Of a stretch of 38,318 nt of DNA, positions 19,485-33,477 are shown one piece after another. How positions within the stretch are numbered: position 1 is the first letter of the stretch; each line of letters begins with the position of its first letter. This DNA comes from Actinomycetota bacterium (GTDB lineage: Bacteria; Actinomycetota; Humimicrobiia; Humimicrobiales; Humimicrobiaceae). The stretch covers positions 1-38,318 of the forward strand of contig PWSB01000237.1 of NCBI GenBank assembly GCA_003563375.1, read 5' to 3'. Under the pieces are notes generated by a model, which saw nothing but the letters and a program-made list of their open reading frames with translations, made no database searches and was not told the origin of the DNA. Both the position numbers and the translations under genes were made by a program.

Positions 19485-19909
19485 TTCTTGAGGATCCTGG
19501 TAAGGGTCACTAATGTTTTCATGCATGCGGTTTTGCCTGTCTTAGCATAATTTATAATGGGTATTATCTTATCATTGTTTAAAGAAATATAGTGCAGACT
19601 GCATATCCATTTACCCTCAATGAATTCCAGTGACATTTTTTTAAGATTAGGAGTGATTTCCATTATAGAAGATAATACTTGGGTCAGGTTAGGCACCCAT
19701 ATAAGATCTTTTTTTTCTAGTTCAAAACTTGAATCAAAATTGGGCACCCAGACCCTGCATTTCTCTTCTTTGCCCCAGCCTGAGATCTTTTCTAAAAAAA
19801 CAAAAAGATCCTGTGAGAGAGCCAGAAAACGGTCGCCGGCATTCCACTTGCATAAAACCTGTATTTCTTTATTTTTGCAAAGGTTGATATATTTTTGAGA
19901 GATCTCCAT
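19481..19909 (-). CDS. Hypothetical protein (142 aa), no family recognised
   Basis: The ORF is bracketed by translational-coupling overlaps: TAATG with the lipA stop, and ATGA with the DUF123 gene. Confidence 0.5.
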   Translation of the reverse strand: MEISQKYINLCKNKEIQVLCKWNAGDRFLALSQDLFVFLEKISGWGKEEKCRVWVPNFDSSFELEKKDLIWVPNLTQVLSSIMEITPNLKKMSLEFIEGKWICSLHYISLNNDKIIPIINYAKTGKTACMKTLVTLTRILKK

Positions 19910-20778
19910 TATTTTCCTTCAGCTGCTTTTTTTAATAGGAGGGATGCCTTATAAGAAGAACGGACAAATGCCCCGCTTATCACATTTTTTATTCCCGCCA
20001 TTTCTGCTAACTCTCTCAATTCTTCATATTCTTCGTTTGAATAATATTTTGTTACATTAATATTATTTCTGGTAGGGCTAAGATATTGGCCTATAGTCAC
20101 CATATCACAGTCAACCTCGTGGAGATCTTTTAGGAGTAAGCCAACCTCGTCCATGGTCTCCCCAAGGCCTACCATAAAACCCGATTTGGTATAAAGTCCT
20201 TTTTTGATTTTTTTAGCTTCTTTCAATATTTCGAGGGAAGCCCTGTAGTCTGCTCCCGGCCTTATTTTGCTATAATTCCTCTCTATAGTCTCAATATTAT
20301 GGTTTAAAACAGAGATAGGTTGAGAGACTATCGTCCTTAAGCTTTCTTTGTTTCCTCCAAAATCTGGTATCAGGCATTCGATCAGGCAGCCTGGTATCCT
20401 TTTTTTTATCTCTTTTACGGTTAGAGAAAAATGTTGTGCGCCACCATCTGCTATATCATCCCTTGTGACTGAAGTAAGGACCACATATCTTAAACCCATT
20501 TTGCTTGCTGTAATACCAATATTTACAGGCTCATTTTCGTCCAAAGGTAAGGTTTTTTTGGAATCGATACTGCAAAAGGCACAATTTCTTGAACACCTAT
20601 CCCCCATAAGGAGAAAAGTGGCGCTCCTTTTGCTAAAACACTCAAAGATATTAGGGCAATTTGCGCTCTGGCAAACAGTATGCAGGTTTGATTCCTCTAT
20701 CAGGCTTTTTACTTCCTTGATAACATTATTGTCCAGGCTTAATCTTTTTTTAAGCCAATCAGGTCTGTGGTCCGACAA
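19909..20778 (-). CDS. lipA: Lipoyl synthase (radical SAM)
   Basis: It has the auxiliary cluster CQSANCPNIFEC and the radical-SAM CSRNCAFC motif. Confidence 0.9.
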   Translation of the reverse strand: MSDHRPDWLKKRLSLDNNVIKEVKSLIEESNLHTVCQSANCPNIFECFSKRSATFLLMGDRCSRNCAFCSIDSKKTLPLDENEPVNIGITASKMGLRYVVLTSVTRDDIADGGAQHFSLTVKEIKKRIPGCLIECLIPDFGGNKESLRTIVSQPISVLNHNIETIERNYSKIRPGADYRASLEILKEAKKIKKGLYTKSGFMVGLGETMDEVGLLLKDLHEVDCDMVTIGQYLSPTRNNINVTKYYSNEEYEELRELAEMAGIKNVISGAFVRSSYKASLLLKKAAEGK

Positions 20779-23200: not shown

Positions 23201-25051
23201 TTACTTCCTTCTTAGGTTAAGCAATAAAATGGATATATCCGAAGGAGATACACCTGCTATCCTGGAAGCCTGCCCAAGGGTGTTTGGCCTTTTTCTCGAC
23301 AATTTTTCTTGAGCCCCATAGGTCAACCCCTTAAATCTAAAATAATCTATATTGGAGGGAATGGCAAATTTTTCAAGCTTTTTAGTTTTTTTTATTTCCT
23401 CAAACTGGCGGTTAATATACCCTTCATATTTTATGATTATCTCTGCTTGTTTCCATACCCCGTCGCCATAACCATTGCTGGCATGATCCAGCCAGTATTT
23501 GATATCCCCTATGTTAACCTGTGGCCTTTTAAAGAGGTCGTATAGCCTGATGGGTTCTTTTAGCTTAAGGTTTGGTCTGTATCTATTTGCTTTTTGGGGT
23601 TTAATCGTTATATTTTTTAGAAGTTTTATCAGGGAATCTATAGCCTGCTGCTTCTTTAATGTCTTCTGATGGGCTTCTTTTTCAAGAAAGCCTGCTTCAA
23701 ACCCCAGGGTTGCTAGCCTGAGGTCTGCATTATCAGATCTCAAAAACAACCTATACTCTGCCCTTGAGGTATACATCCTGTAGGGCTCACTGAGGTCTTT
23801 TGTGATAAGATCATCTATTAAGACTCCTATATAGCTTGTATCCCTTGTCAATATCAGGGGTTTTTTGCCCAAGATTTTCAAGGATGCATTAGCTCCGGCT
23901 ACAAAACCCTGCACAGCGGCTTCTTCATATCCCGAGGTTCCATTGATCTGGCCAGCAAAATAAAGATTCTCTATCAGCTTGGATTCCAGGGTATAGTTTA
24001 ACTGGCAGGGTATTAGGTAGTCATATTCTACTGCATAGCCCGGCCTTATGATGCTTGCTTTCTCCAGTCCTTCTACTGTATTTACTATTTTTTCCTGCAG
24101 GTAGAAAGGCATGCTGGTGGTAAGTCCCTGTAGGTACATCTCGTTTGTGTGAACCCCTTCAGGTTCAATAAATACAGGATGTTTATGTTTTTGGGGAAAA
24201 TTTAGGACTTTTCTGTCAATTGAGGGGCAATGCCTTGGCCCATGGGTATTAATTATGCCTGATCTTATAGGAGAATACTTTATATTTTGGGCTATTAAAT
24301 CATGTGTTTTACTATTGGTATATGTTAGAAAGCTTGGAATATTTGCTCTTTCTCCCCTTTTGGGACAAGCCCAAAAAGAAAAACTACCAGCTTCCTCATC
24401 ACCTGAGCTGATAATAGTCTTTGAAAAATCTATGCTTCTTTTATCCACTCTGGGCGGTGTGGCGGTTTGAAACCTGTCCATCTCAAAACCAAGGCTGGTG
24501 AGGCTTTTGGTCAGGTTCATGGCAGGGTTCTCTCCCATTCTTCCTGCATAATAGTCCTTATCCCCTATTATTATCCTTCCCCTCAAAAAGGTCCCGCTAG
24601 TGATTATCACAGCTTTAGCCAAAAATTGCATTCCGTCTTCGGTTAGTACTCCTTTTACCTTTATACCGTCGACTAAAAGCTTAGCAACCGTTCCCTGTTT
24701 TAATAAAATGTTATCTGTAGTTTCTAAAAGATGCTTCATCAAGGTCTCATATTCTTTTTTATCTATCTGGGTTCTCAAAGCCTGGACTGCCGGCCCTTTT
24801 TTTTGATTTAATAATTTGAACTGTATACCTGCTAGGTCAGCAATTTTGCCCATCTGCCCCCCCATTGCATCCAATTCTTTTATAAGCTGGCTTTTGCCCA
24901 TCCCTCCTATTGCGGGATTGCAGGGCATAAGGGCTACTTTGTCTAGATTTATGGTAAGAAGAAGAGTATTTAATTTTAATCGGGCACAAGCAAAGGCTGC
25001 TTCACATCCTGCATGGCCTGCTCCTATAACTATTACATCATACATGGTCAT
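23201..25051 (-). CDS. mnmG: tRNA uridine-5-carboxymethylaminomethyl synthesis enzyme MnmG (GidA), copy A (616 aa)
   Basis: It has YDVIVIGAGHAGCEAA, MPCNPAIGG, HGPRHCPSID and GQINGTSGYEEAAVQG. Its start overlaps the copy B stop (ATGA). Confidence 0.9.
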   Translation of the reverse strand: MTMYDVIVIGAGHAGCEAAFACARLKLNTLLLTINLDKVALMPCNPAIGGMGKSQLIKELDAMGGQMGKIADLAGIQFKLLNQKKGPAVQALRTQIDKKEYETLMKHLLETTDNILLKQGTVAKLLVDGIKVKGVLTEDGMQFLAKAVIITSGTFLRGRIIIGDKDYYAGRMGENPAMNLTKSLTSLGFEMDRFQTATPPRVDKRSIDFSKTIISSGDEEAGSFSFWACPKRGERANIPSFLTYTNSKTHDLIAQNIKYSPIRSGIINTHGPRHCPSIDRKVLNFPQKHKHPVFIEPEGVHTNEMYLQGLTTSMPFYLQEKIVNTVEGLEKASIIRPGYAVEYDYLIPCQLNYTLESKLIENLYFAGQINGTSGYEEAAVQGFVAGANASLKILGKKPLILTRDTSYIGVLIDDLITKDLSEPYRMYTSRAEYRLFLRSDNADLRLATLGFEAGFLEKEAHQKTLKKQQAIDSLIKLLKNITIKPQKANRYRPNLKLKEPIRLYDLFKRPQVNIGDIKYWLDHASNGYGDGVWKQAEIIIKYEGYINRQFEEIKKTKKLEKFAIPSNIDYFRFKGLTYGAQEKLSRKRPNTLGQASRIAGVSPSDISILLLNLRRK

Positions 25052-26826
25052 TTTTTCCTATGTTTCACGTGAAACATCTTCAAATAACACAAAAGAGATA
25101 AAAAATCAGAAGGGCTCACACCCTGTAACCGGCGGGCCTGCCTCAAAGAATCCGGTTTACTTTCTTCAAGGGCGAGAATAGCCTCGTTAGAAATATTTTT
25201 TATATTTTTATAATTGATTTTTTGTGGTATTTCAAAATCTAAGCTGTTCTTTATCTTCTCGATTTCTTTTACCTGTCTTTCTATATATTCTCTATATTTT
25301 AAGTTAATGTATACGCTATCTATGTCTTTGGTGCATAATTTATATTTACCCTTCAAAATATCCTTGTATTTATTGTAAAAAGACTCTTTGGTTGGTTGTC
25401 CGAAATTATTGTTTTCTAATATTTCCTTCCCAGCAAGATGGATTTTTTCATATTTTTCCTCTATTATCTGCGCTTTTTCATTAAAGCCTATTATTTTTAA
25501 GAATTTTAGCATCCTATAATCGGCGTTATCATGCCTGTGGTAGAGCCTAAATTCATTTCTAGAAGTGAGCATTCGATATGGTTCAGTTATTTTTCTGCTA
25601 ACTAGATCATCGATCAGTACCCCTATATAACCATCTTCCCTGTTGATCTGGATCCCATTTTTATCCTGGGACATCCTCCCTGCATTGATGCCTGCAATTA
25701 TACCCTGGGCAGCGGCTTCTTCATATCCTGTGGTTCCATTTATCTGCCCAGCAAAAAACAGGCCTTTGAGTTTTTTACATTCAAGTCTGTTGTTTATCTG
25801 GAATGGCAGGATATAATCATATTCTACCCCATATCCCGGCCTGGTAATAACCGCCTTTTTTAGTCCTTTTATTTTTTTTAACATGCCCGCCTGGATTTCT
25901 TCACTGAGAGTTGTCATCAACCCATGTATATACATTTCAGATGTCCTCCTGCCTTCAGGCTGGATAAACAAGAGATGGCTTTTTTTATCAGGATATCTGG
26001 TTACCTTTTCTTCGATGGATGGGCAGTATTTAGGGCCTTCTGACTCTAACTTGGCAAAAAAAGAGCCATTCAGGTTTTTTTTGATATAATCTATACCATC
26101 TTCTCCAATATGAGTCATATGATTGTTGAATTGGCTCCTGCCGTCATATTTATCCTCAAAAGAAAACATTTCAGGATGATCGTCATAATATTGGAGTTTT
26201 AATCCTCTAAAATCTATTGCCTTGGAATCCACCCTGGGAGGTGTGTTTGTATTTAATCGTCCAAACCTGATGCCCAATTTCTCAAGATTCCTGGATAATT
26301 TATTAGAAGGAACCTCCCCTTGCCTTCCTGCCTCAATTTTATTTGCCCCCCAAAAAACCTTGCCCCTCAAAAAGGTGCCGGTGCATAAGATTACACATTT
26401 TGCAAAATATTTGTAGCAGTCACTGGTTTCTAAAAAATATAACCCCTTATCCTTCCCTATATTTACCACCATTGCCTGCCTTAGGGTTAAATTCTCTTGA
26501 TTTTCAACAATTTTCTTCATAGCCAGAAAATACTCTCTCTTGTCTATTCCCGCCCTAAGCGTTCTCACCGCTGGACCTCTTGATGTGTTTAACATCCTCA
26601 TATGAAGGAAGGTCCTATCGGTATTTTTGGCCATCTCGCCGCCCAATGCATCGATCTCTCTAACCATCTGCCCTCTTCCCGGGCCTCCAATAGAACTATT
26701 GCAGGGCATGGCGGCAATAGAATCCATATTTATGGAAAGAAGCAGTGTATTTGCTTTTAGGCGGGCAGCGGCTAATGCTGCTTCACATCCAGCATGTCCT
26801 GCCCCTATCACTATTACCTCATACAT
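25048..26826 (-). CDS. mnmG: MnmG (GidA) paralog, copy B (592 aa)
   Basis: It has YEVIVIGAGHAGCEAA, MPCNSSIGG, EGPKYCPSIE and GQINGTTGYEEAAAQG. It is full length, not the short TrmFO type. Confidence 0.85.
   Translation of the reverse strand: MYEVIVIGAGHAGCEAALAAARLKANTLLLSINMDSIAAMPCNSSIGGPGRGQMVREIDALGGEMAKNTDRTFLHMRMLNTSRGPAVRTLRAGIDKREYFLAMKKIVENQENLTLRQAMVVNIGKDKGLYFLETSDCYKYFAKCVILCTGTFLRGKVFWGANKIEAGRQGEVPSNKLSRNLEKLGIRFGRLNTNTPPRVDSKAIDFRGLKLQYYDDHPEMFSFEDKYDGRSQFNNHMTHIGEDGIDYIKKNLNGSFFAKLESEGPKYCPSIEEKVTRYPDKKSHLLFIQPEGRRTSEMYIHGLMTTLSEEIQAGMLKKIKGLKKAVITRPGYGVEYDYILPFQINNRLECKKLKGLFFAGQINGTTGYEEAAAQGIIAGINAGRMSQDKNGIQINREDGYIGVLIDDLVSRKITEPYRMLTSRNEFRLYHRHDNADYRMLKFLKIIGFNEKAQIIEEKYEKIHLAGKEILENNNFGQPTKESFYNKYKDILKGKYKLCTKDIDSVYINLKYREYIERQVKEIEKIKNSLDFEIPQKINYKNIKNISNEAILALEESKPDSLRQARRLQGVSPSDFLSLLCYLKMFHVKHRKK
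25061..25076. promoter_or_regulatory. parS: parS (ParB-binding centromere-like site), perfect palindrome
   Basis: TGTTTCACGTGAAACA fits the canonical TGTTNCACGTGAAACA parS consensus exactly. It extends to the 18-bp palindrome ATGTTTCACGTGAAACAT at 25060-25077. It lies inside the last codons of mnmG copy B (KMFHVKHRKK*), 8 nt upstream of the copy A ATG. Confidence 0.8.
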
Positions 26827-30132: not shown

Positions 30133-30456
30133 TTAATCAAAAGCAGAGAGTAGCGAGTTTTCAATCACTTGTTTTAGCTGGTGATAGCCAGCACCTGCGG
30201 ATGCTTTCCTGACCACTATTAGCAGGTCCAAGCCTTTATCGTTGATTTCGATCTTCCTTAAAACTTCCTTGATAATCCTTTTAATCCTATTGCGGGTCAC
30301 AGCATTTCCCACATTCTTTCCTACGCTTATACCCACCCTCATCATCCCAAGGTCGTTTTCCTGGATGTAAAACTTTGCAAACTTGCTGCTGGCGGTCCTG
30401 CCTTCTGAATAAATCCTATTGAACTCGCTCTTTCTCTTCAGGGTCTCGAGCTGCAT
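30133..30456 (-). CDS. rnpA: RNase P protein component
   Basis: It has the RNR-type block [14 protein letters not shown]. The ATG at 30456 shares one base with the rpmH TGA (TGATG). The track start at 30459 is a TTG one codon upstream. Confidence 0.9.
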
Positions 30457-30590
30457 CAAGCACTTAATTTCTTTCTGCCTTTTTTTCTTCTATTTGATAT
30501 AATCCTTCTTCCGGCCTTTGTTTTCATCCTGGCCCTAAAGCCATGATTCTTTTTTCTCTTCCTTTCATTGGGCTGGTACGTTCTTTTCAT
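30456..30590 (-). CDS. rpmH: 50S ribosomal protein L34
   Basis: My translation is [44 protein letters not shown] (44 aa). It is too short for the ORF track. Confidence 0.95.
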
Positions 30591-30791
30591 CTTTATCCTT
30601 CAAATCATTAAAATTTTAATTAAGGTTTAAATTATACATACTAATTCTACTAATATCAAGATATGTGCAGTGCATCCGAGAGATATTTTATTCAAACACT
30701 TGTTCACTATTATTAGTTTTTGAAAAGTATTTTAAACAACCCTGAACAGTATAGTGGAGTTTTCCCAAAATACAATCTTTTTCTCTGCGGG

Positions 30792-30943
30792 TTTTCAACA
30801 GCTGTGGAAAATATTGTTGATAAATTAGAAAAGTGCCACTGTGTAGGCATTCAAATACCTTTTAATTATTAACTTTTTAAAGAATAGATATCACGTTTTC
30901 CGCATATTATCGTTTAGCGTATTGATTTTTTATTTGTTGATAA
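30792..30943. other. oriC: oriC part 1: DnaA-box cluster upstream of the dnaA operon
   Basis: Near-consensus boxes (consensus TTATCCACA): TTTTCAACA at 30792-30800; TGTGGAAAA at 30803-30811 (reverse complement TTTTCCACA); TGTTGATAA at 30815-30823 and 30935-30943 (reverse complement TTATCAACA); TTTTCCGCA at 30896-30904. Confidence 0.7.
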
Positions 30944-30975
30944 CTTGCATTGTGAAAAGATAGTGAAAAGATCCA

Positions 30976-31004
30976 TTGATATTAAAATGGTTAATTATTA
31001 TAAT
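30976..31004 (+). promoter_or_regulatory. Strong sigma-70-type promoter for the ATPase-wHTH gene and probably dnaA
   Basis: TTGATA (30976-30981), a 17-nt spacer and TATAAT (30999-31004). A DnaA box ends 32 nt upstream of the -35. Confidence 0.6.
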
Positions 31005-31036
31005 TTTTCTATTATTATCGATAGACTTCATGTTTT

Positions 31037-31825
31037 ATGTTGGAAAACCAGGCCGGTCCAAATAAAAAATCGAATGTAAAAATCCCGGTAAGGATCGCCG
31101 TCTATGATAACCTGAAGAGCATACCCCGGGTAGTAGAGATGGACTTTGATAATGTATCAGCCTTTATAGATGAATCCTCTCAAAGGACCTATACCCTTTC
31201 TCACCAGGCCGGAGGCCAGATCCCATATACCATAATAAGGGAGATAATTGAAAATCTTATACATGCAGAATTTTGTGAGATTATCATCACCGTCCTGGAC
31301 GGGGGAAACCATATCATCATCTCAGACCAGGGGCCCGGTATAGAAAATAAAGACAAGGCTTTCCTGCCCGGGTTTACCTCAGCCACCAGAAAGATGAAGG
31401 AATATATAAGGGGGGTTGGGTCAGGCCTGCCTATCGTAAAGGAGACCATAACTTTTTCAGGAGGGTCGATAGATATAACTGATAATATAAAGAGGGGGAC
31501 AGTGGTCTCTTTGAAAATAGATTCACCAAAGGAAGGCCAAAAAAAAGAACCTGTACCTTCAGATGAGACAAAAAAGAAACCGGAAACAGATTTCGGTGAT
31601 CTGAAACTAACCATTAGGCAGAAAAAATTGCTCTCCCTTATTTTGGAAATGGAGGAAGCAGGGCCTTCAAAGATTTCAAATGAACTAAACTTCAGCCTTT
31701 CTACTTCTTATAGGGAACTGATATTTTTAGAGAATAAAAAGCTGGTTGCCTCAAGCAGCTCGGGGAAAAGAAGATTAACCGAAAAAGGCATTAAATATCT
31801 TGAATATTATTCAAATAATTTTTAA
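31037..31825 (+). CDS. GHKL (histidine-kinase-like) ATPase domain protein with C-terminal winged-helix domain
   Basis: It has an N-box-like EIIENLIHAE, G1 DQGPGI and G2 GVGSGLP. After a Lys/Glu-rich linker comes LTIRQKKLLSLILEMEEAGPSKISNELNFSLSTSYRELIFLENKKLV, which looks like a MarR/wHTH. It ends 12 nt before the dnaA ATG. Confidence 0.65.
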   Translation: MLENQAGPNKKSNVKIPVRIAVYDNLKSIPRVVEMDFDNVSAFIDESSQRTYTLSHQAGGQIPYTIIREIIENLIHAEFCEIIITVLDGGNHIIISDQGPGIENKDKAFLPGFTSATRKMKEYIRGVGSGLPIVKETITFSGGSIDITDNIKRGTVVSLKIDSPKEGQKKEPVPSDETKKKPETDFGDLKLTIRQKKLLSLILEMEEAGPSKISNELNFSLSTSYRELIFLENKKLVASSSSGKRRLTEKGIKYLEYYSNNF

Positions 31826-31837
31826 TATGATTCTATC

Positions 31838-33193
31838 ATGAATAACTTGGCTGATTCCTGGAAATCAATATTAGAAGATATTAAAGATAGCATAAATACT
31901 CCCACTTATAAGACGTGGTTTGAGCATGTCTATCCGATATCATATGAGGAAAACTGCCTTACCCTCTCTGTAAACAGCCAGTTTGCCAAAGAATGGCTGG
32001 AGACAAGGTACAATAAAATAATAAATGATTCCATAAGGAAAAATATAGATAAAAATTGTAAGCTTAAAATCATAGTAAATCCAAAAAAAGGCCATCATTT
32101 AAATGAAAGCGACCTTATTCCTGAAATAAATACAGAACCTCGAGAACAGGTTGAGAAGACGGCAAGCTCGATGTTTAACACCAAGTACAGTTTTGAGACC
32201 TTTGTAATAGGAAGCGGAAACAGGTTTTCACATGCGGCAGCACTTGCAGTCAGTGAAAACCCAGGAAAAGCCTATAATCCTCTATTTATATACGGCGGGG
32301 TAGGGCTTGGCAAAACCCATCTGCTGCATGCTATAGGGCAATACCTTACCCAGATATATCCAGACCTGACAGTAAAATATGTCTCTGCAGAAAAGTTTTT
32401 AAATGATTTTATCAATGCTCTAAGAGACAAGACAGTCCTGACTTTCAAGGATTACTATAGAAACAACGATGTTCTTTTAGTGGATGACATACAGTTTTTG
32501 GAGGAAAAGGAGGCAAGCCAGGAAGAATTTTTCCATACCTTTAATGCCTTGCATGATACCAACAGGCAAATAGTGCTTTCAAGTGACAGGAAACCCAAAG
32601 ACATCTCTTCTTTGGAGGAGAGGCTGAGATCCCGTTTTGAGTGGGGCTTGGTGACTGATATACAGCCTCCTGATTTTGAGACGAGGTTTGCAATCCTTAA
32701 GAAATACTCTGAAAGAGAGAAAATAATTGTATCGGATGATATCCTGTCCCTTATTGCCAGCAGAATAACTTCCAATATAAGAGAGCTTGAGGGGGCTCTT
32801 ACCAGGGTAGTGGCTTTTTCGTCTCTTACAAGGTCAAAACCTGATGTAGAGATTGCCAAAAATGTGTTAAGGGATATTCTTCCAGACAACAGCGAGCAAA
32901 AGATAAATATACCAAGAATCATAAAAGAAGTTTCCAAATATTTTTCTATACCCATAAACACCCTTACCGGCAGCAAGAGAAATAAGTTCGTCTCCCATGC
33001 AAGGCAGCTTGCCATGTACCTTTCCAGAGAGCTTACCAGCAATTCGCTGCCAAAGATCGGGACAGCTTTTGGGAACCGGGACCATGCCACGGTCATATAT
33101 GCTATATCAAAGATATCAGAGCTTATAAACCAGGATCAGGAAGTCTATAAGCAGATCCAGCAGATAACCAATAATATAAAAAGAAACCCTTAA
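31838..33193 (+). CDS. dnaA: Chromosomal replication initiator protein DnaA
   Basis: It has NPLFIYGGVGLGKTHLLHAIG (Walker A), LLVDDIQFL and a domain IV block (ARQLAMYLSRELT...IG..FG.RDHATV). Confidence 0.97.
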   Translation: MNNLADSWKSILEDIKDSINTPTYKTWFEHVYPISYEENCLTLSVNSQFAKEWLETRYNKIINDSIRKNIDKNCKLKIIVNPKKGHHLNESDLIPEINTEPREQVEKTASSMFNTKYSFETFVIGSGNRFSHAAALAVSENPGKAYNPLFIYGGVGLGKTHLLHAIGQYLTQIYPDLTVKYVSAEKFLNDFINALRDKTVLTFKDYYRNNDVLLVDDIQFLEEKEASQEEFFHTFNALHDTNRQIVLSSDRKPKDISSLEERLRSRFEWGLVTDIQPPDFETRFAILKKYSEREKIIVSDDILSLIASRITSNIRELEGALTRVVAFSSLTRSKPDVEIAKNVLRDILPDNSEQKINIPRIIKEVSKYFSIPINTLTGSKRNKFVSHARQLAMYLSRELTSNSLPKIGTAFGNRDHATVIYAISKISELINQDQEVYKQIQQITNNIKRNP

Positions 33194-33234
33194 AAACTTT
33201 GATTGTTGAATGTATTGTTTATAACCCCCAGTTT

Positions 33235-33444
33235 TTGTCAACATTTCTATATTTTACGGTAAATAAAAAAGGATTGTTTTTTAGTAGTGTATAAATGCCT
33301 TTTTTATCAACACAGTTTTTGGCCTTTATCAACACACTGTTCTTGGCCACATCGAGGGTTTATAATGCTTCTTAACAGTTTAAACACCTTCTATATATTT
33401 ATTACTAAAGTTATTTAAATAAATAAATATATATAATAGAATGG
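33235..33444. other. oriC: oriC part 2: DnaA boxes plus AT-rich putative unwinding element between dnaA and dnaN
   Basis: Boxes are TTGTCAACA (33235-33243) and TTATCAACA at 33304-33312 and 33326-33334. The last two share an 11-mer TTATCAACACA, 22 bp apart. A nearly pure A/T run spans 33391-33444. Confidence 0.65.
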
Positions 33445-33477
33445 TTGATAATTAAGCAATTTAAAAAGAGGTTGGAA

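Follow-up and report, generated by a model that had tools for sequence, protein, structure and literature searches.

An open reading frame between rpmH and dnaA encodes a GHKL ATPase with a winged helix

The stretch of DNA analysed here, referred to as the window, comprises 38,318 nucleotides of contig PWSB01000237.1 (assembly GCA_003563375.1) from an Actinomycetota bacterium of the Humimicrobiia. Between rpmH (30456-30590, divergent) and dnaA (31838-33193, plus strand; matches to DnaA_N, Bac_DnaA and Bac_DnaA_C, with Bac_DnaA at E = 6e-74 in a Pfam profile search) lies an open reading frame of 262 amino acids (31037-31825, plus strand, ATG start), in the following termed the ORF. Its stop codon is separated from the dnaA ATG by exactly 12 nucleotides, and both the size and the spacing agree with the initial annotation of this locus. 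Upstream, a 446-bp intergenic region (30591-31036) with a cluster of DnaA boxes and divergent promoters, recognised by box search and conserved alignment blocks, separates the ORF from rpmH. The position, conservation and predicted domains of the ORF protein make it a strong candidate partner or regulator, so far undescribed, of the replication initiator DnaA.

The domain composition proposed for the ORF protein, a GHKL ATPase followed by a C-terminal winged helix-turn-helix (wHTH), was borne out by profile searches and structure prediction. HATPase_c (PF02518) matched residues 64-163 (E = 9.2e-13; 49.1 bits against a cut-off of 26.4) and was found in 62 out of 62 members of a family alignment (37-79% identity). 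The motifs EIIENLIHAE, DQGPGI and GVGSGLP are present in the ORF protein and invariant throughout this alignment. Invariant residues map to the N box (E69, E72, N73, H76, A77), the G1 box (D97, G99, P100, G101), the G2 box (G126-V-G-S-G130), the G3 box (G154) and the wHTH (R194, G209, L228, E232, R245, G251), whose recognition helix (LSTAYR-L) hardly differs between phyla. In the window protein alone, the wHTH stayed below threshold (HTH_45, E = 1.5e-4; 22.1 bits against 25.5); family-wide, TrmB was matched in 48 of the 62 members (best E = 3.9e-9) and HTH_IclR in 44. The domain also matches models of the Csa3/CasR type (TIGR01884, E = 2e-4; PADLOC CARF3/CasR, E = 1.8e-6 to 1e-4).

An AlphaFold2 model based on the 62-sequence alignment reached a mean predicted local distance difference test score (pLDDT) of 82.6; a first model from 16 close sequences was poor (pLDDT 60.6) and was not used. 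The model comprises a Bergerat-fold ATP-binding module (residues ~15-163; 31079-31525, plus strand) with an N-terminal beta-hairpin and helix followed by the N, G1, G2 and G3 boxes, a disordered linker rich in K, E and P (residues ~164-190; 31526-31606) and the wHTH (residues ~191-262; 31607-31822). Block means of pLDDT were mostly 82-94 in the ATPase module, with about 75 over residues 121-130, and fell below 50 at residues 165-183 of the linker. The wHTH, modelled at a pLDDT of about 90, has the order helix-helix-helix-beta-beta-helix (helices 193-205, 210-217, 221-233 and 249-261; strands 237-239 and 245-247). In a Foldseek search, the best matches were catalytic and ATP-binding (CA) domains of histidine kinases (E = 8e-7, probability 1.0), which are distant at TM scores of 0.3-0.5 and 15-27% identity, and the PDB profile search returned KinB (E = 3.8e-7). 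The initial annotation had described a minimal Bergerat ATPase reminiscent of SpoIIAB/RsbW. The Bergerat motifs are clearly there; the module as a whole is closer to histidine-kinase CA domains. By profile and predicted fold, the ORF protein is a member of the GHKL ATPases and of the wHTH proteins at the domain level only, and the wHTH would be expected to bind DNA.

Family members range from 246 to 491 amino acids, and the linker varies from roughly 20 to 200 residues. The longer members, up to 491 amino acids, contained no extra domains or fusions to DnaA; their length is due to extended tails or linkers, or to wrongly called starts in high-GC genomes. In high-GC Coriobacteriia (the Slackia/Coriobacteriaceae metagenome-assembled genomes (MAGs) L066, L070 and L071), the reading frame runs 130-350 codons upstream of the core, and in one such case the mechanically extended frame crosses rpmH. 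These extensions are almost certainly mis-extended starts, which would account for some of the "long" database entries.

The ORF family is discrete and invariably adjacent to dnaA

A sequence search returned 1231 homologs of the ORF protein. At 50% identity, 341 clusters scored E <= 1e-30 and only 1352 scored E <= 1e-3 among 1.84 billion representatives, and judged by this clustering the family is discrete. The identical 262-amino-acid protein is called on eight public contigs. Members are named "ATP-binding protein", "helix-turn-helix domain-containing protein" or "predicted HTH transcriptional regulator", and neither Pfam nor NCBIfam holds a family for the whole protein. No paper was found on the family, on its linkage to dnaA or on any regulator combining GHKL and wHTH, and searches of Pfam, NCBIfam and the PDB returned no such architecture either, in line with the earlier remark that no regulator of this kind had been described. 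The ORF is the founding, uncharacterised member of its family.

Carriers occur in the Humimicrobiia (Ca. Hydromicrobium; the lineage of the window itself) and in Coriobacteriia (among them the cultured Gordonibacter pamelaeae, G. urolithinfaciens, Raoultibacter timonensis, Arabiibacter massiliensis and Rubneribacter badeniensis). Further members were found in Ca. Hakubella, Ca. Geothermocultor, Calidifonticultor, Geothermincolia-like MAGs and many MAGs of Bacillota/Clostridia.

Scattered homologs would have spoken against a link to the origin. We scanned one genome per GTDB species with two peptide motifs, an approach that would miss divergent paralogues elsewhere in the genomes. The scan yielded 80 loci, two of which lie on contigs that end at the ORF. 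In all of the 78 testable species loci, covering Actinomycetota classes and Bacillota, the homolog is located directly upstream of dnaA on the same strand. The same order was present in 13 further places retrieved by exact-protein look-up, among them members that share only ~40% identity with the window protein and one with the label Betaproteobacteria. Across about 95 loci, the motif-based scan and look-ups returned no copy away from dnaA. Wherever the flank exists in the species-scan loci, rpmH lies divergently upstream.

A different surrounding was found in the complete genome of R. timonensis (AP025577.1, 4009729-4016621; locus L091), where the ORF homolog is the last gene of the record and is preceded by an inverted dnaN-recF-gyrB-gyrA block instead of rpmH. 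On a second contig with the identical R. timonensis protein, dnaA follows downstream. The ORF-dnaA pair has thus stayed together through a rearrangement of its surroundings.

The ORF had initially been regarded as inserted ahead of dnaA. Its position is as described, but the distribution across several classes indicates an ancient, vertically conserved arrangement and not a local insertion. Likewise, the concern that the ORF might not be conserved in close relatives does not apply: five relatives carry it at 66-79% protein identity.

Conservation of the ORF protein was also compared with that of its neighbours, using median identities to the window's proteins in Humimicrobiia-group loci and in distant loci, respectively. 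The ORF protein reached 63% and 45%, DnaA 68% and 51%, YidC 65% and 39%, DnaN 53% and 34%, Jag 53% and 29%, and RnpA 39% and 30%. By this measure, the ORF protein has changed at a pace close to that of DnaA and below that of the sliding clamp.

The ORF is predicted to lead the dnaA operon

The sequence TTGATA-17-TATAAT (30976-31004, plus strand), a predicted sigma-70-type promoter of the ORF-dnaA operon, matches the consensus at 11 of 12 positions and is the best plus-strand match in the region. As promoter-like matches are no denser in this AT-rich DNA than chance would predict (13 observed against 10.4 expected from shuffled sequence), the match alone says little, and it is its conservation that carries weight: in the five relatives both hexamers are invariant, while spacer and flanks diverge. 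A DnaA box, TGTTGATAA, is located at 30935-30943, 32 nucleotides upstream of the -35 hexamer, so that the promoter lies downstream of a DnaA box as originally described. A second promoter with the same hexamers and spacing and an equal score (TTGATA-17-TATAAT, 11/12; 30631-30659, minus strand) is situated ahead of rpmH. Of 45 related spacers, 34 contain its k-mer CTTGATATTA and 41 its k-mer ATGTATAAT.

From the promoter at 30976 through to dnaN, no plus-strand terminator was predicted. This includes the interval 31700-31837, in which a separate promoter or terminator of dnaA would have argued against a common operon. The sole promoter candidate there (31810-31839) matches 9 of 12 positions with a chance-level score, and its -10 hexamer overlaps the dnaA ATG. 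A Shine-Dalgarno sequence is present ahead of jag, yidC, rpmH, dnaN and panB and absent ahead of the ORF and dnaA (31007-31036 and 31808-31837), including the 12-nucleotide ORF-dnaA junction (31826-31837). The absence of these sites suggests that the initiator operon is translated at a low level or by coupling.

The gap between the ORF and dnaA is 9-12 nucleotides throughout the Humimicrobiia. Values of +2, -1 or -4 were found in several lineages that are Humimicrobiia-related, Geothermincolia-like or part of the Coriobacteriia, and other lineages have gaps of 13-137 and rarely 330-400 nucleotides. The close or overlapping junction together with the missing Shine-Dalgarno sequence suggests that translation of dnaA depends on ribosomes terminating at the ORF. 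Shared strand, a gap of 12 nucleotides that leaves no room for a terminator, adjacency in 78 of 78 loci and the conserved upstream promoter all agree with the earlier proposal that the ORF leads the dnaA operon. On these grounds, co-transcription and translational coupling of the ORF with dnaA are predicted.

DnaA boxes flank the ORF-dnaA pair on both sides

Using the box variants of this lineage, TT[AT]TC[AC]ACA, we found 11 exact matches in the window, four of which fall in the rpmH-ORF spacer and two in the dnaA-dnaN spacer. All of 71 related upstream spacers contain exact boxes, one to nine each. The upstream cluster of the window includes two TGTTGATAA boxes that are conserved in relatives; on the minus strand they were identified as TTATCAACA at 30815-30823, conserved as TGTT(G/A)ATAA, and at 30935-30943, the box ahead of the -35 hexamer. 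A head-to-head pair of boxes with a 2-bp spacer forms the 20-bp near-palindrome TTTTCAACAGCTGTGGAAAA (30792-30811), which is invariant in six relatives. Most Humimicrobiia spacers, and those of Hakubella, contain a convergent pair of this kind, likewise with 2 bp between the boxes and located about -240 to -280 from the ORF start. As a binding site common to the whole family the palindrome was rejected, being kept in Humimicrobiia and Hakubella and absent from Coriobacteriia and most Bacillota loci.

Abutting the -35 hexamer is a direct repeat, TGAAAAG-N4-TGAAAAG, with a period of 11 bp (30953-30970, plus strand), which is conserved in relatives and present in 35 of 45 distinct Humimicrobiia-group spacers. 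Coriobacteriia and others carry direct TGTGGAxA DnaA boxes with a period of 11-12 bp at similar promoter-proximal positions. We therefore downgraded the repeat as a candidate operator of the wHTH; the simpler reading is that it probably represents degenerate, helically phased DnaA boxes. DnaA boxes were the only elements found to be common to the upstream spacers of all lineages.

The dnaA-dnaN spacer (33194-33477) contains a second cluster, with five DnaA-box-like sites at 33216, 33235, 33304, 33326 and 33443 and an AT-rich tract of 55 bp (33385-33440). K-mers of the TAGTAGTAG type, resembling DnaA-trios, occur in the equivalent spacers of relatives. This spacer is likely the unwinding part of a bipartite oriC. 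With box clusters on both sides, the ORF-dnaA pair sits between the two parts of the apparent bipartite origin.

The ORF protein differs from known GHKL and origin-acting proteins

With the CA domain of sensor histidine kinases (HK853, CpxA, KinB, WalK), the ORF protein has in common the Bergerat fold and the N, G1, F-like, G2 and G3 boxes. Unlike these kinases, it lacks the dimerization and phosphotransfer domain (DHp/HisKA), a phospho-acceptor histidine, a sensor and a transmembrane part, and instead carries a wHTH on a disordered linker. Membership was rejected, as there was no HisKA-type match at E <= 1 and the sole helix ahead of the N box (residues 40-58) contains the non-conserved H56. 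SpoIIAB/RsbW-type proteins bind their partners in an ATP-dependent manner. The ORF protein resembles them as a small stand-alone GHKL module with an N-terminal strand and helix before the N box and a histidine after the Mg-binding Asn; it differs in carrying a wHTH and in having no adjacent STAS partner gene. This assignment was rejected as well, with no HATPase_c_2 match, 20.1 bits against a cut-off of 135 for TIGR01925, and rpmH and dnaA as neighbours in the loci examined. For the GHL ATPases (GyrB, MutL, Hsp90, Topo VI-B, MORC) the transducer domain is missing, the ATPase module being followed after residue 163 by the disordered linker and the wHTH; MutL matches are limited to the N box-G1 segment (residues 62-122). 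An origin from anti-phage defence systems or phages was likewise discarded, since matches in PADLOC and PHROG were confined to the domain level (wHTH to CARF/CasR, ATPase to kinase-like phrogs).

Among proteins acting at origins, CtrA, MtrA, Spo0A and HP1021 bind through a (w)HTH in or beside clusters of DnaA boxes and adjust initiation or the transcription of dnaA to a signal from a histidine-kinase ATPase. Their homology to the ORF protein is that of a generic wHTH only. They possess a receiver domain that is phosphorylated in trans, whereas the ORF protein has a kinase-type ATP-binding domain fused to its wHTH, encoded in the predicted dnaA operon. By analogy, it may best be likened to a one-component version of origin-acting histidine kinase/response regulator pairs. 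DnaA and archaeal Orc1/Cdc6 likewise combine a nucleotide-binding module with a DNA-binding (winged) HTH at the C terminus and are encoded at the origin, but they are AAA+ proteins and not GHKL proteins. The presence of an intact DnaA next door marks the ORF protein as an addition and not a replacement. With one-component regulators of the Csa3/CasR and TrmB type it shares matches to the C-terminal wHTH models; its putative sensor, however, is a GHKL ATPase and not a CARF or sugar-binding domain, and its context is dnaA and not a CRISPR or sugar operon.

The accessory modulators of DnaA, i.e. Hda, DiaA/HobA, YabA, SirA, Soj/ParA, DnaD and CcrZ, constitute the candidate class to which the ORF protein would belong, and Soj and Hda are also nucleotide switches. 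To our knowledge, none of them is a GHKL protein or encoded upstream of dnaA in its operon. No homology to Hda, DiaA, HobA, YabA, SirA, Soj, DnaD or CcrZ was detected among the Pfam, NCBIfam and PDB sequence matches or the top 50 PDB fold matches. As a functional kind, an origin-encoded accessory factor of DnaA is known; the architecture is unprecedented.

A putative ATP-dependent, DNA-tethered partner of DnaA

We assign a probability of roughly one half to the reading that the ORF protein acts in an ATP-dependent, DNA-tethered way as a partner or regulator of DnaA and is made together with it, from the first gene of the dnaA operon. According to this proposal, transcription would start at the sigma-70 promoter flanked by DnaA boxes, with the ORF as the first gene. 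As dnaA has no ribosome-binding site of its own and begins 12 nucleotides past the ORF stop, it would be translated by coupling, and both proteins would be made together. The winged helix would tether the ORF protein to DNA in the region of the origin and the dnaA promoter, where the ATP-bound module could modulate DnaA with respect to its assembly on box arrays and/or transcription of the operon. In this way, nucleotide or energy status would feed into initiation. The recognition helix hardly varies between phyla, which implies that its target is conserved as well, and DnaA boxes are the sole shared upstream element that we found. We infer origin-region DNA binding, ATP dependence and an action on DnaA alike from sequence and context.

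Several observations weigh against this proposal. No DNA motif specific to the ORF protein was found in the upstream spacers, where the conserved promoter-proximal repeats are most simply DnaA boxes. Weak promoter-like matches lie inside the ORF (31258-31287 and, at its end, the 31810-31839 candidate), and some loci from Bacillota and Actinomycetota have 60-400 nucleotides ahead of dnaA, so that dnaA may have its own promoter there. In addition, the linker is disordered and of variable length, which speaks against a rigid allosteric coupling by which the ATPase would control the wHTH; a tethering role of the wHTH fits such a linker better.

The repeats abutting the -35 hexamer also bear on a different view, in which the ORF protein is an ordinary autoregulatory, nucleotide-sensing one-component wHTH regulator that represses or activates its own promoter and hence dnaA, with no direct action on the DnaA protein or on origin unwinding. 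Operons led by their regulator are common, and the wHTH is of the TrmB/IclR/MarR/Csa3 type found in ligand-sensing regulators. The repeats would then serve as its binding site, but they are placed like the plain DnaA boxes of other lineages. Conservation close to that of DnaA combined with a nearly invariant recognition helix across phyla would be unusual for a local regulator, and the tight or overlapping junctions imply a matched co-production that a repressor does not need. We consider such an autoregulator unlikely, although it is the alternative to be taken most seriously. Still more doubtful is a DNA-tethered protein kinase or partner-switching factor, similar to SpoIIAB/RsbW or to a histidine-kinase catalytic domain working in trans, that is localised to the origin by its wHTH and phosphorylates DnaA, a sigma factor or another protein. 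The best fold matches are indeed kinase CA domains, the N box ENLIHA is similar to the N..H(A/G) variant known from SpoIIAB-type kinases, and a flexible tether would suit an enzyme acting on a neighbouring DNA-bound substrate. The matches to anti-sigma F factors are weak, however (TIGR01925, E = 4.8e-4, at 20 bits against the cut-off of 135; 1l0o, E = 0.035), and HATPase_c_2 gave none at E <= 1. There is neither a HisKA/DHp domain nor a conserved acceptor histidine, other lineages having R, Q or K at the position of H56, and no gene for a STAS or anti-anti-sigma protein is located nearby in the loci examined. We also know of no precedent for phosphorylation of DnaA by a kinase of the SpoIIAB or histidine-kinase type.

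Finally, the ORF could have a function unrelated to replication and be kept in place by the strong, growth-coupled rpmH-dnaA promoter region and an arrangement that is hard to break. The role in replication is deduced from sequence context, and the gene order of the origin region (parAB, rsmG, mnmGE, jag, yidC, rnpA, rpmH, dnaA, dnaN) is generally conserved. Yet other neighbours change while the ORF-dnaA pair does not: downstream, pan genes alternate with recF, S4 or DciA genes, and upstream, rpmH is exchanged for inverted dnaN in R. timonensis. The lack of any copy away from dnaA in about 95 loci and the tight or overlapping junctions in several independent lineages likewise disagree with mere neighbourhood, and this explanation appears the least probable to us.

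If an ATP-dependent partner of DnaA is indeed encoded here, the proposal may be extended to the family as a whole. Tentatively, and with less confidence than in the proposal itself, we suggest an unrecognised, probably essential GHKL-ATPase component of initiation, a DNA-tethered ATP switch working directly with DnaA at a bipartite origin. It would operate in Coriobacteriia (including human-gut Eggerthellaceae), Humimicrobiia, related deep actinobacterial classes and some Bacillota, with no counterpart in Escherichia coli or Bacillus subtilis. Knowledge of how DnaA is regulated comes largely from E. coli, B. subtilis and Caulobacter, and the regulators known so far lack conservation across bacteria. 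Should the ORF protein act on DnaA or oriC, GHKL would be a new fold among the proteins controlling replication initiation. In two phyla the link between the family and dnaA is closer than for any known regulator, with the gene at the head of the predicted operon and translation probably coupled. The cultured and medically relevant gut carriers (Gordonibacter, Raoultibacter, Arabiibacter, Rubneribacter) make the hypothesis directly testable, and annotation of thousands of "ATP-binding protein" entries would gain from it.

Gene order around the ORF-dnaA pair

The window shows the canonical gene order of an origin region. The minus strand carries parB, parA, rsmG, two copies of mnmG, mnmE, jag, yidC, yidD, rnpA and rpmH, and the plus strand the ORF, dnaA, dnaN, a DUF2520 gene and panBCD. 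The cumulative GC skew has its minimum at about 30-32 kb. An Rfam search of the window returned no RNA family; a riboswitch or leader RNA does not explain the region.

In some distant carriers, a gene for DciA (PF05258), a helicase-loader-type protein of the ancestral kind, is located a few genes downstream of dnaA (L094, 8728-8783; L097, 7761-8252). Where the block of origin-region genes ends in the window, a radical-SAM gene (19909-20778, minus strand) adjoins parB. The two mnmG/gidA copies are full-length tandem paralogues of 616 and 592 amino acids (23201-25051 and 25048-26826, both on the minus strand) that overlap by 4 nucleotides and sit upstream of mnmE. The second paralogue has no GIDA_C_1st match, and the duplication is seen in relatives too.

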